A stretch of DNA of 13,865 nucleotides, from the UHGV virus genome UHGV-0099111. The stretch is one strand, 5' to 3'. This stretch comes from a virus. Position numbers: made by a program. How positions within the stretch are numbered: position 1 is the first letter of the stretch; each line of letters starts with the position of its first letter. This document shows, one piece after another, positions 3,001 through 6,000 of the stretch.

Positions 3001-6000
3001 AACGTTGATGTTGTTTGGCTTCAGCACGGCACTTCGTTAAATGGAGCGAATGATGAAGATACTCTTTCATTTGTTGGCAAATTAAAAAAAGGGTTAGTGC
3101 GCGTGGTTGGTGAGGCAATTCTTGGTGTTGATGGTGCCATCGAGATGACCGAAGAGCGCGATGGGTGGCTCAAGATTTATAGCGATGATCCAGATGCCTT
3201 TGGTCTTCGTGTGAAAGGAGACAGCATGTGGCCCAGAATAAAATCAGGAGAATATGTACTCATTGAGCCTAACACCAAAGTATTCCCGGGTGATGAGGTG
3301 TTTGTCAGAACCGTTGAAGGACACAACATGATCAAAGTTCTTGGCTATGACAGAGACGGAGAATACCAGTTTACAAGCATCAACCAGGACCATAGGCCAA
3401 TAACGTTGCCTTATCATCAAGTAGCAAAGGTGGAGTATGTGGCTGGTATTCTGAAGCAATCTCGCCATCTGGATGACATCGAGGCAAGGGAGTGGCTGAA
3501 AAGTTCGTGACTTCATCGTCACATAGCTGATAGCCAATGGCCTGAAGAGACGTTTGGGTGATAAGAGAATATCTGATAGTAGGCGTGGTTACTTTGCTCT
3601 CGGTTGTTGCGATCGTGCTTATGGTGGCCTGATGAGGTGTTTGGTTATCAGGAGTACGCATGAGGATAGGTATTGCTTTTCCGGTGATAGTGTTCATCGT
3701 GGCTGTGGCGTTTATGGCGTGGTTTGTCGTGGGTGGGTATGCGACGCCGGGTGGTTGATGAGACGTTTGGGTGAGATTGATGATGTAAGAGAGGTCGCAG
3801 AGATGCGGCCTTTTTTTTAATTGTCAAAACTCACAACCACGCACCCATGAGAATCTTTTTTTCACTCATGGCAATCATGACATTGACTCACACCACTTCT
3901 TTATGCCAGGATCATTTCAATCCAGAAAATCCTGGAAAATGATCTACTTAGGTGGAATATGCAACTTCTAACGAAAGAAAAGTTCTTTAGCTTTGTTGAG
4001 AACTACGAGCGCCTAACAGCGTCCAGTTCCAGAACAGCAGAGAATATTCAGTCGGTATGTCAACGCGTTGAGGTTTTTATACCTTCTGATTCACCTGCTG
4101 ATGCATGGGATGTACAAGGCATCGTTGATAGATATGCAGAGACCGTATCACTCAGTGAGGACAGCAAACGTTCATATAGCAGCCGCTTCAATAGCGCTGT
4201 ATCAAAGTTCATTGCTTATGAGAAAGGGGAAGATGTGAAGGCTAAGCCAAAGCCAAAGCGTCAACGTTCTGCTACAACAAAGCCTGTAGAGGAAAACTCA
4301 GTGAAGACTTTTGAATTGCCAATCCCATTGCGGGGCGATCTAATTGTCAACATTGGCAACCTACCTCGCGACCTCACAAGGGAAGAGGCAAAGCGGATCA
4401 GCAATATTATTGAGTCGTTTGCAATGTTTGACGATCTCACAAAAGAATAAAGCCCCGTTTGCAGCGGGGCTTCATAAGTGGAAGTTTTGGAAACTTCCTG
4501 AGTACAGGTTAACTGTTACCCACTAACTTAGACAATTAGAGGATAACGGTTGGCCGGGGCAAACGCAAGACTGTAAGGGATTACAGTCTGGGTTTAAATA
4601 CAGGTAAATCGTTATGATGGCACATGATGTAAATCGTGATGACTATATCTACGAACACGACAAACCGGTTTATGTGCGCAGCTACTGCCGCGTACGTTTC
4701 GGTGAACTCGAAAATGTTCGTCAGCACTTTCGTTCATATCCGAACTGCTGAGTAAGTATTGTCTAACCAGCCCGGCCTCAGCGCCGGGTTTTCTTTGCCG
4801 CACGATCCCCATCTAAAGACACATAACCAATTGTATTTATTTCAAAATTAATAGATACAACTCACTAAACATCGCAATTCAGATCTCTCGATCACCTTCC
4901 AAGCCACACCCCCCTGCAAAATATAACCCCATAAAATACAAAACGTTATAAAAAACTAATCATATTTAGAACATTTTGTATTGACTCAATAAAGTACACA
5001 TCGTACTATTTAGCCATCAGCAGGACGCACTACTCACCAGGGCGGTGAATATACAACGATTCAGAGATGAATCTACGAGGCTGAAAAGCCTAATAACCAA
5101 AGTGAACTTTGGGATGCGATGAAATGCAGCCCGTTGAGGCAAGCCGAAGATAAGCACCGGCCATTGCATCACCAAAGTTCATCAGGAGGTCACTATGACA
5201 CGCAGAACAGCTTTCAATGGCTCAGCATCAGGTCGTCGTCGTGAGCGTCGTGCAGCGCTCCAGAATGAGATTACGGCAAGCTCAGAAGTATTACACCGCC
5301 CTACTCTAAGCAGAGCGCAGATTCAGGCTAAAGGTACTCACGAAACGCCTGAGCGCATAGAAGACGCTAAGCCAATTAAGTTCATGGCACAGGACGTGAT
5401 CTGGCAACAGAAAGAATACAGACGCAATCTGGAGCGAGCGGCCATTGTGTACGCGAATGAGTTTGGACATAAGCAACCAGAAACTGGTGTATGTCTTCCA
5501 AACGTAGCCATTTACGCGGCAGGCTACCGGAAATCAAAACAACTGACGGCGAGGTGACTTGTGTTGGTCGCCAGAAGCAACGCGGAAAATCAATTCCAGC
5601 TTATTACGATTGAGGTGGTCATGCTCAAGAAAGTCAAACGCCGACTTTACAAAGAAGGTAGATATTCATGCCAGTTGCCAAAATGCGACACAACAAAATG
5701 GAGTGTCGATGATTGGTGTAACTGGATAGATAGATACGGAACTTGGTGGGATAAATAACAGGTAACTTAAGCGTATTTACTTTCGCGGCAAACCACTTAT
5801 TTGAGGTGATATATGGAAGAAGAATTTGAAGAGTTCGAAGAGCATCCGCAGGATGTGATGGAAAAATACCAGGACTATCCGTATGACTGCGACTATTGAT
5901 AAGAATCAATGGTGTGGGCAATACGAGCGGCGGCAATGATTGCCGGATGTGGCGCTTTACGCCACTGGACATCGCAGCAGAAAATCGGTTACGGCGCGTT

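Follow-up and report, generated by a model that had tools for sequence, protein, structure and literature searches.

The orf163 locus

This study concerns orf163, a gene for a protein of 163 amino acids in the early region of a P22/Sf6/N7-like lambdoid phage; the region lies in reverse orientation in a 13,865-nucleotide (nt) stretch of the virus genome UHGV-0099111, hereafter the window. The open reading frame (ORF), at 3959-4450 on the plus strand, and the hairpins flanking it (3787-3816 and 4447-4475, both recovered by the terminator scan) are present as an earlier, sequence-only reading of the window had described. The genes and transcription signals of the locus are as follows.

337-1200, minus strand: DnaC-like gene
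1185-2030, minus strand: O
2063-2359, minus strand: cII
2497-2757, minus strand: cro
2803-3510, plus strand: cI (HTH_3 and Peptidase_S24 domains)
3787-3816, plus strand: intrinsic terminator after cI, left edge of the cassette (terminator scan)
3959-4450, plus strand: orf163, 163 residues
4614-4751, plus strand: orf45 (phrog_21154), 45 codons, the likely start being the second ATG, at 4617
4769-4790, plus strand: intrinsic terminator, right end of the cassette, just 5' of the oL/pL region (terminator scan)
4981-5009, plus strand: pL-like promoter
5195-5557, plus strand: N

The position of orf163, on the cI strand between cI and oL/pL, is that of the rexA-rexB slot of lambda, where a terminator likewise precedes pL. 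The rex genes differ from orf163, however, in that they share no sequence or fold similarity with it, and in that a terminator separates orf163 from cI, the gene apparently having its own promoter. The post-cI terminator hairpin (GGTCGCAGA..GCGGCCTTTTTT) also lies 5' of the homologue in several of the loci fetched for comparison (numbered here with the prefix L: L001, L004, L002, L020, L047 and L049), and because it is kept in this manner orf163 needs a promoter of its own. A counterpart of the second terminator, again on the plus strand, follows orf45 in every locus examined.

Exchange of a terminator-bounded cassette

A metagenomic lambdoid contig (L005) shares 98.9% identity with positions 3756-4792, and a viral contig (L011) shares 99.5% with positions 3791-4792; outside this stretch both backbones are different, with cI, replication and N genes unlike those of the window. 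The block common to all three starts at the post-cI terminator and stops at the post-orf45 terminator. The cassette (about 3791-4792) is a terminator-bounded, 'moron'-type unit that moves between lambdoid backbones, and the best explanation for orf163 is that it is the main gene of this mobile accessory cassette, which comprises, in order, a terminator, a promoter, orf163, a structured RNA, orf45 and a terminator. The sequence-only reading had suggested separate acquisition of the gene on the grounds of its apparent AT-richness; modular exchange, with the mosaic boundaries revealed by L005 and L011, bears out the acquisition, whereas the argument from composition falls, the composition of the gene being unremarkable (see below).

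The gene order cI, orf163, orf45, N is kept in most of the loci fetched, and homologues occur additionally in other settings: flanked by primase/helicase and capsid genes in a satellite-like element (the L006 group), after umuDC at the end of a P2-like prophage (L010), and adjoining gin in phage YP3. A megablast search with 3500-4800 against phages and 5426 complete Escherichia coli genomes returned no near-identical copy of the ORF, the matches being confined to the end of cI and a phi80-like spacer.

A family of lambdoid early-region proteins

The description of orf163 as an orphan of lower GC than its neighbours does not survive comparison. Its GC content (0.441) is close to that of cI (0.459) and of the window as a whole (0.457), that of N being 0.507; GC at third codon positions (GC3) is 0.423, against 0.426 for cI; the GC z-score of the gene among the 24 genes of the window is -0.30, and its codon bias is mid-range. 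The sole AT-rich part is the upstream spacer of 142 base pairs (bp), with a GC of 0.380. In addition, the protein matches PHROG 2602 (E 8e-27); Enterobacterales yield 63 homologues of it at E <= 1e-3, and its family comprises 1015 representatives of 50%-identity clusters. Fifty deposited phage records contain a homologue in the interval from cI to N, and named examples of homologues include VT2-Sakai ORF23, Stx2-1717 gp19, SH2026Stx1 gp20, Salmonella phage Oslo gp53 and a protein of Yersinia phage YP3. With GC like that of its flanks and homologues in lambdoid early regions, the notion of a compositionally distinct orphan is essentially refuted, although the lambdoid early-region family to which orf163 belongs is itself uncharacterised.

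VT2-Sakai ORF23, Stx2-1717 gp19 and Oslo gp53 are homologous to orf163 over the full length (30-45% identity), have the two-domain architecture described below, and are likewise encoded on the cI strand between cI and N; they differ from it in having an N-terminal domain of another subfamily and other upstream dyads, and none carries an assigned function or domain. The conserved start of orf163 is at 3959, an ATG with AGGTGG ahead of it; a 214-residue gene call for the identical protein in L005 was rejected as an upstream extension arising from single-base indels in the spacer. In the E. coli prophages L043, L044 and L046 (about 3621-4153) a frameshift separates an N-terminal fragment of the homologue from its C-terminal part, a 63-residue ORF to which PHROG 36396 corresponds. 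Elsewhere, at 1345-3784 of L052, a distant member (P0138) lies directly 3' of a gene for a fused N6/N4 methyltransferase and Mrr-like nuclease.

Architecture of the orf163 protein

The AlphaFold2 model of the protein (mean predicted local distance difference test score, pLDDT, 79.5) consists of helices at residues 6-88, a disordered segment at 97-114 and a beta-beta-alpha unit at 117-153, giving the following divisions.

3959-4228, plus strand: residues 1-90, N-terminal helical domain, tyrosine-recombinase core-binding / SAM-like fold, the variable part of the family
4229-4300, plus strand: residues 91-114, basic, Lys/Pro/Arg-rich linker, disordered by pLDDT
4301-4450, plus strand: residues 115-163 and stop codon, conserved beta-hairpin and helix domain with the motif PIPLR..L.V.I.NLP.DLT..EA.RI

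In the model, the N-terminal domain shows the core-binding (SAM-like) fold of tyrosine recombinases, which it has in common with lambda Int, XerC/D and XerA. Consistent with this assignment, nine of 40 diverse family members match the Pfam family Phage_int_SAM_1 (best E 6e-5), others among the 40 match SAM_3, SAM_4, SAM_5 and SAM_6, and the window protein itself has a match in the N-terminal part of the XerA model (E 0.0027). A few basic positions of the domain are conserved, R76 being invariant. The Lys/Pro-rich linker (VKAKPKPKRQRSATTKP), which the sequence-only reading had identified as joining two segments, is indeed basic and is predicted to be disordered, with pLDDT below 50 at residues 97-114; its net charge is positive in 85% of family members.

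That reading was also correct in recognising no catalytic motif, as the protein is without a catalytic domain. Only 40-50 residues follow the linker before the protein ends at residue 163, leaving no R-K-H-R-H/W-Y catalytic domain and no match to the Phage_integrase family of Pfam; nor does orf163 possess the arm-type DNA-binding domain (three-stranded sheet plus helix) of heterobivalent integrases. The C-terminal beta-beta-alpha domain has no known match, its weak structural similarities being to SRP9/14 and levivirus coat proteins; all of these are obligate dimers, which fits a 40-residue beta-beta-alpha unit that needs a partner. Other searches were likewise uninformative: the window protein alone gave nothing usable against Pfam, NCBIfam and PADLOC (in PADLOC only noise, Avs1b at E 0.004 and 12.5 bits and CorA at E 0.046), PDB sequence searches with the single protein and with the family profile found no relative, and Foldseek against the BFVD viral models returned nothing at E <= 1e-3.

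Variation within the family is unevenly distributed. The N-terminal domain and the region upstream of the gene are variable (39% identity), whereas the C-terminal domain and the region downstream are conserved (75%), and nucleotide similarity to L002 and L003 starts at about 4301, within the linker. Such a distribution would be expected were specificity and operator to change in concert.

Proteins related in fold or origin to tyrosine recombinases provide points of comparison. FliZ, a global repressor of E. coli in which a lone core-binding-like domain acts as a DNA-binding repressor (PMC3367168), resembles orf163 in being small, in having an integrase core-binding-like domain and in being without the recombinase catalytic domain; it differs in that its core-binding-like region is C-terminal, in having no beta-beta-alpha domain and in being chromosomally encoded as a member of the flagellar regulon. 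SPbeta MrpR and phi3T SroF are integrase-derived, non-catalytic proteins reused as prophage regulators, but retain a full-length integrase-like body where orf163 has no catalytic domain of any kind.

Dyads, promoter and GATC sites upstream of orf163

Several inverted repeats and transcription or translation signals lie in the spacer between the post-cI terminator and orf163.

3845-3851/3865-3871: inverted repeat CCATGAG-N13-CTCATGG
3883-3912, plus strand: candidate extended -10 promoter, read by eye, with TTGACT (3883-3888), 15 nt, TG (3904-3905) and CAGGAT (3907-3912)
3906-3912/3929-3935: nested dyad 1, CCAGGAT/ATCCTGG (inverted-repeat search)
3910-3917/3937-3944: nested dyad 2, GATCATTT/AAATGATC (inverted-repeat search)
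3950-3955, plus strand: Shine-Dalgarno sequence AGGTGG, paired with CCACTT (3893-3898) in the RNA fold

The 7-bp repeat noted previously is confirmed as perfect, its copy in L005 having an N12 rather than an N13 spacer, and the longer dyad reported downstream of it resolves into two nested perfect repeats within 3906-3944. Across the 142-bp upstream stretch there are four perfect 7-mer inverted-repeat matches, against 0.34 expected from dinucleotide shuffles (P about 0.009); a lone 7-bp repeat such as that at 3845-3871 is within chance (P about 0.22), and the best 8-bp repeat by itself has P = 0.085. At the level of the family, predicted promoters are flanked by dyads particular to each subfamily, also in the distant loci L059 (GGTTGAT-N27-ATCAACC around the -35 element) and L060 (11-bp arms); the arms reach 17 bp in L040 and 10-12 bp in L047 and L049. 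Combined by Fisher's method, the best-repeat P values give about 1e-6, the loci being non-independent and five of the 27 having individual P <= 0.05. No comparable dyad occurs in the pL/oL region. A sigma-70 promoter is legible in loci of the L002, L009, L010, L040, L047, L049 and L022 types (TTGATT, 17-18 nt, TAnnAT), with GATC in the spacer.

The earlier suggestion that the dyads are operators for a dedicated regulator thus gains support from the family-wide occurrence of dyads around promoters, with the modification that the regulator is most likely the product of orf163 itself, since its N-terminal domain has the integrase core-binding (DNA-binding) fold. Other repeats are found nearby: C+A-rich repeats of the ACTCAC/CACAAC type lie just 3' of the cI terminator (window 3829-3899, with ACTCACA at 3829 and 3886), and long arrays of CATCTCACTGCATCC-like units are present upstream of the satellite-borne homologues (L006, L014, L017 and L018).

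The same region is marked by Dam sites. In the window, each arm of the long dyad contains a GATC, at 3910 and 3941 respectively and so 31 bp from one another; the one at 3910 overlaps the -10 hexamer of the candidate promoter. The regulatory region thus contains two GATC sites, and two or more are characteristic of Dam-dependent epigenetic switches such as pap, agn43, gtr and opvAB. In the 150 nt upstream of the homologue in 20 non-redundant loci there are 44 GATC sites, against 8.7 expected from the rest of the loci (about 5-fold; Poisson 1.6e-17), and GATC is the only 4-mer palindrome so enriched there. The heptamer GATCTTT occurs in nine of 19 upstream regions against 0.15 expected, and the 31-32 bp spacing of GATC pairs recurs in three other subfamilies. 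The whole window (1-13865), by comparison, is depleted of GATC: shuffles give 57 +/- 7 sites where the window has 33. Small GATC clusters are also seen upstream of pL (4804, 4882 and 4890) and in the coding sequence of the orf163 C-terminal domain (4337, 4396 and 4433).

A structured RNA and a conserved small gene downstream

The interval between orf163 and orf45 contains two RNA features.

4447-4475: G+C-rich hairpin over the orf163 stop codon, helix 1 of the structured spacer, its T-tail being better on the minus strand
4451-4613, plus strand: conserved structured RNA spacer of 163 nt with five helices (RNAalifold)

For ten diverse loci RNAalifold gives 35 pairs in the five helices, of which ten show compensatory changes; 95% of cells pair in the named structure, as opposed to 35-51% when the partners are slid, and the covariation was reached by none of 500 shuffles. 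Helix 4 covers the orf45 Shine-Dalgarno sequence, and the 4451-4613 RNA is probably the leader of orf45. No Rfam family corresponds to any RNA of the cassette, and the known prophage small RNAs AgvB/AsxR and Pas were set aside as located elsewhere or giving no match.

Of the substitutions in orf45, 646 are at the third position of the codon and 151 and 175 at the other two, a pattern by which we judge it to be protein-coding and under purifying selection. Its product, of 44-45 residues, is 88-100% identical across loci where orf163 is just 34-50% identical, and gave nothing above noise against Pfam, PADLOC and NCBIfam. The gene is present in 33 of the 47 homologue loci and missing from the remaining 14, where the orf163 C-terminal domain is still conserved; these absences rule orf45 out as an obligate partner of orf163, making it a frequent one instead. 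In L060 (6001-6859) a 46-codon ORF loosely like orf45 (KWVFCRYRRKKNGTELLDAHAYG) lies 140 nt 3' of the distant member P0084.

A working model for orf163 and its alternatives

The reading that we favour, with a probability of about 0.45, is that lysogens express orf163 as a dimeric DNA-binding protein which has the integrase core-binding fold and regulates its own synthesis; its variable N-terminal domain and its dyads would change together, and its promoter or operator would be Dam-sensitive. The N-terminal domain would supply sequence-specific DNA binding and the basic linker flexibility, the conserved beta-beta-alpha domain would probably make the protein dimeric, and the dimer would bind the dyads over its own promoter, here GATCATTT-N19-AAATGATC, so regulating itself from a promoter separate from that of cI. 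Dam methylation of the GATC sites in both dyad arms would then modulate either binding of the dimer or promoter strength. The fold, architecture, synteny, cassette mobility and the statistics of dyads and GATC sites are results of the analysis; DNA binding, dimerisation, autoregulation, methylation sensitivity and a link to lysogen viability are inferred.

What is known of a homologue in the Sakai prophage Sp5, ECs1184 (ORF23, VT2-Sap23), bears on function. Systematic deletion of Sp5 genes in a K-12 lysogen yielded 43 in-frame mutants, whereas no deletion of ORF23, a protein with 'no conserved domains', was obtained; its loss 'appears to be lethal' (PMC5155283). Because this copy is undeletable in the lysogen, the role of orf163 probably has to do, by analogy, with the silencing of some prophage or cassette function. 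In an RNA-interactome study ECs1184 was recovered from enterohaemorrhagic E. coli cultures at a false discovery rate of 0.065, just short of significance, and on polynucleotide kinase labelling the plasmid-expressed, tagged protein gave a signal like that of the sfGFP control, indicating that it is not a strong RNA binder (PMC7618764).

A number of observations weigh against this model. DNA binding is argued from the fold, and sequence identity between the N-terminal domain and solved core-binding domains is 2-15%. The domain is acidic in the window protein (net charge -2, isoelectric point 5.1), and is non-negative in only about half of the family. Alignment to FliZ by hhalign does superimpose the core-binding-like regions, but not significantly (E 0.0096, probability 4%). 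ECs1184 is only about 30% identical to the window protein. Taken alone, the window dyads are just marginally past chance, and no promoter upstream of orf163 passes the threshold of the consensus scan, so that the TTGACT/CAGGAT candidate is itself inferred. The GATC sites could serve host factors rather than the orf163 product, and an alternative view of the dyad is as an RNA hairpin in which the Shine-Dalgarno sequence is masked (z -1.95).

These last two points lead to alternatives, which, like the addiction hypothesis considered below, are not mutually exclusive. Host Dam together with Lrp, OxyR or SeqA might target the dyads and GATC sites so as to make the cassette phase-variable or replication-coupled, as for pap, agn43, P22 gtr and the IS10 transposase promoter, with orf163 a lysogenic-conversion or superinfection-exclusion effector instead of its own regulator. 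We regard this as doubtful, even though the GATC enrichment extends across subfamilies, GATCTTT is the most enriched 7-mer, L002-type promoters carry GATC between -35 and -10, and the rexAB slot is a classic site for exclusion genes. GATCTTT resembles CGATCTTTT, the 'GATC box' of pap-type operons, and the spacing of 31-32 bp between GATC pairs in several subfamilies is compatible with SeqA binding. Distant members, however, retain promoter-flanking dyads without any GATC, no PADLOC defence match rises above noise, and there is no OxyR consensus within three mismatches, a stringent test and hence a weak result. Were the upstream dyads instead to act as RNA, a long hairpin in the 5' untranslated region would sequester the Shine-Dalgarno sequence, for example as a thermosensor or as the target of an antisense or small RNA. 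Pairing of CCACUU (3893-3898) with AGGUGG (3950-3955) around the nested dyads is in keeping with this, and many homologues, excluding that of the window, have a CCTCAT-N7-ATGAGG hairpin over the Shine-Dalgarno sequence directly before the ATG. The pairing in the window matters only if transcription starts upstream of 3893, yet the sole good -35 element, TTGACT at 3883, would place the start near 3919, downstream of the anti-Shine-Dalgarno sequence; as the z-score is in addition modest, and the 3845-3871 repeat and the GATC enrichment are left unexplained, we consider an RNA role distinctly unlikely.

It is also conceivable, if improbable, that orf163 and orf45 constitute an addiction or toxin-antitoxin-like pair, orf163 being an autoregulated antidote or repressor and orf45 a harmful product silenced by its leader, such that loss of orf163 kills the lysogen. 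The apparent lethality of ORF23 loss from Sp5 would accord with such an arrangement, as would the frequent occurrence of orf45 after orf163, the purifying selection upon it, the sequestration of its Shine-Dalgarno sequence in a covarying helix, the ORF with a loosely similar motif in L060, and the co-divergence of orf45 with the orf163 C-terminal domain in L001 and L004; physical linkage alone can, however, explain the last of these. The C-terminal domain stays conserved in the 14 loci that are without orf45, although a type II antitoxin is expected to have its linked toxin gene wherever it occurs; type II pairs do not typically have a structured spacer, here of 163 nt, separating them; and orf45 encodes a soluble protein of 45 residues that is unmatched in the domain databases; neither ORF matches a known toxin or antitoxin family in Pfam, NCBIfam or PADLOC. 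Going further than the self-regulating dimer that we favour, the family might constitute a prophage-borne reader of Dam-methylation state, in which a core-binding-fold dimer sits on paired GATC half-sites approximately three helical turns apart, in a SeqA-like geometry, and couples a lysogeny-maintenance or addiction cassette, made up of orf163, a riboregulated leader and the orf45 micro-protein, to the replication or methylation status of the DNA; this bolder proposal we consider very unlikely.

Other features of the window

Between the cI stop codon and the terminator (3535-3816) lies a G+T-rich non-coding stretch (GC skew +0.34) with a repeated motif, GAGACGTTTGGGTGA. Part of it (3538-3645) recurs, at 96-99% identity, as unannotated DNA 3' of cI in phi80 and in laboratory K-12 strains with phi80 remnants, and L005 is without about 126 bp between two copies of GAGACGTTTGGGTGA; the stretch may be a cI 3' untranslated region element or a small RNA. 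A weak rsmX-like Rfam match on the plus strand at 6148-6250 (31 bits, E 0.011, gathering score 56) ends in a strong terminator hairpin after a 68-codon ORF (6023-6229), and is probably just that terminator. A 340-residue ORF at 7196-8218 on the plus strand has a long, highly charged centre rich in Glu, Ala, Lys and Arg, and contains the strongest AT skew of the window (up to +0.73).

Implications

The family of which orf163 is a member is unannotated and comprises at least 1015 clusters at 50% identity. Many enterobacterial prophages, Shiga-toxin prophages among them, carry a representative in the lysogen-expressed slot beside the repressor, and further copies are found in satellite-like and P2-like elements. 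The undeletable Sp5 copy, as the sole genetic datum, makes the family a candidate second factor in the stability of Shiga-toxin phage lysogens. If the methylation-reader proposal were true, deletion would be lethal to the lysogen, and the N-terminal domain and operator would co-diversify in the manner of immunity specificity. The model of a self-regulating DNA-binding protein would, if correct, provide a second independent case, after FliZ, in which the DNA-clamping domain of a recombinase has been reused as a stand-alone regulator. What was a 'hypothetical protein' now has a fold assignment, a defined cassette, candidate Dam-site operators, and a linked structured RNA and micro-ORF.

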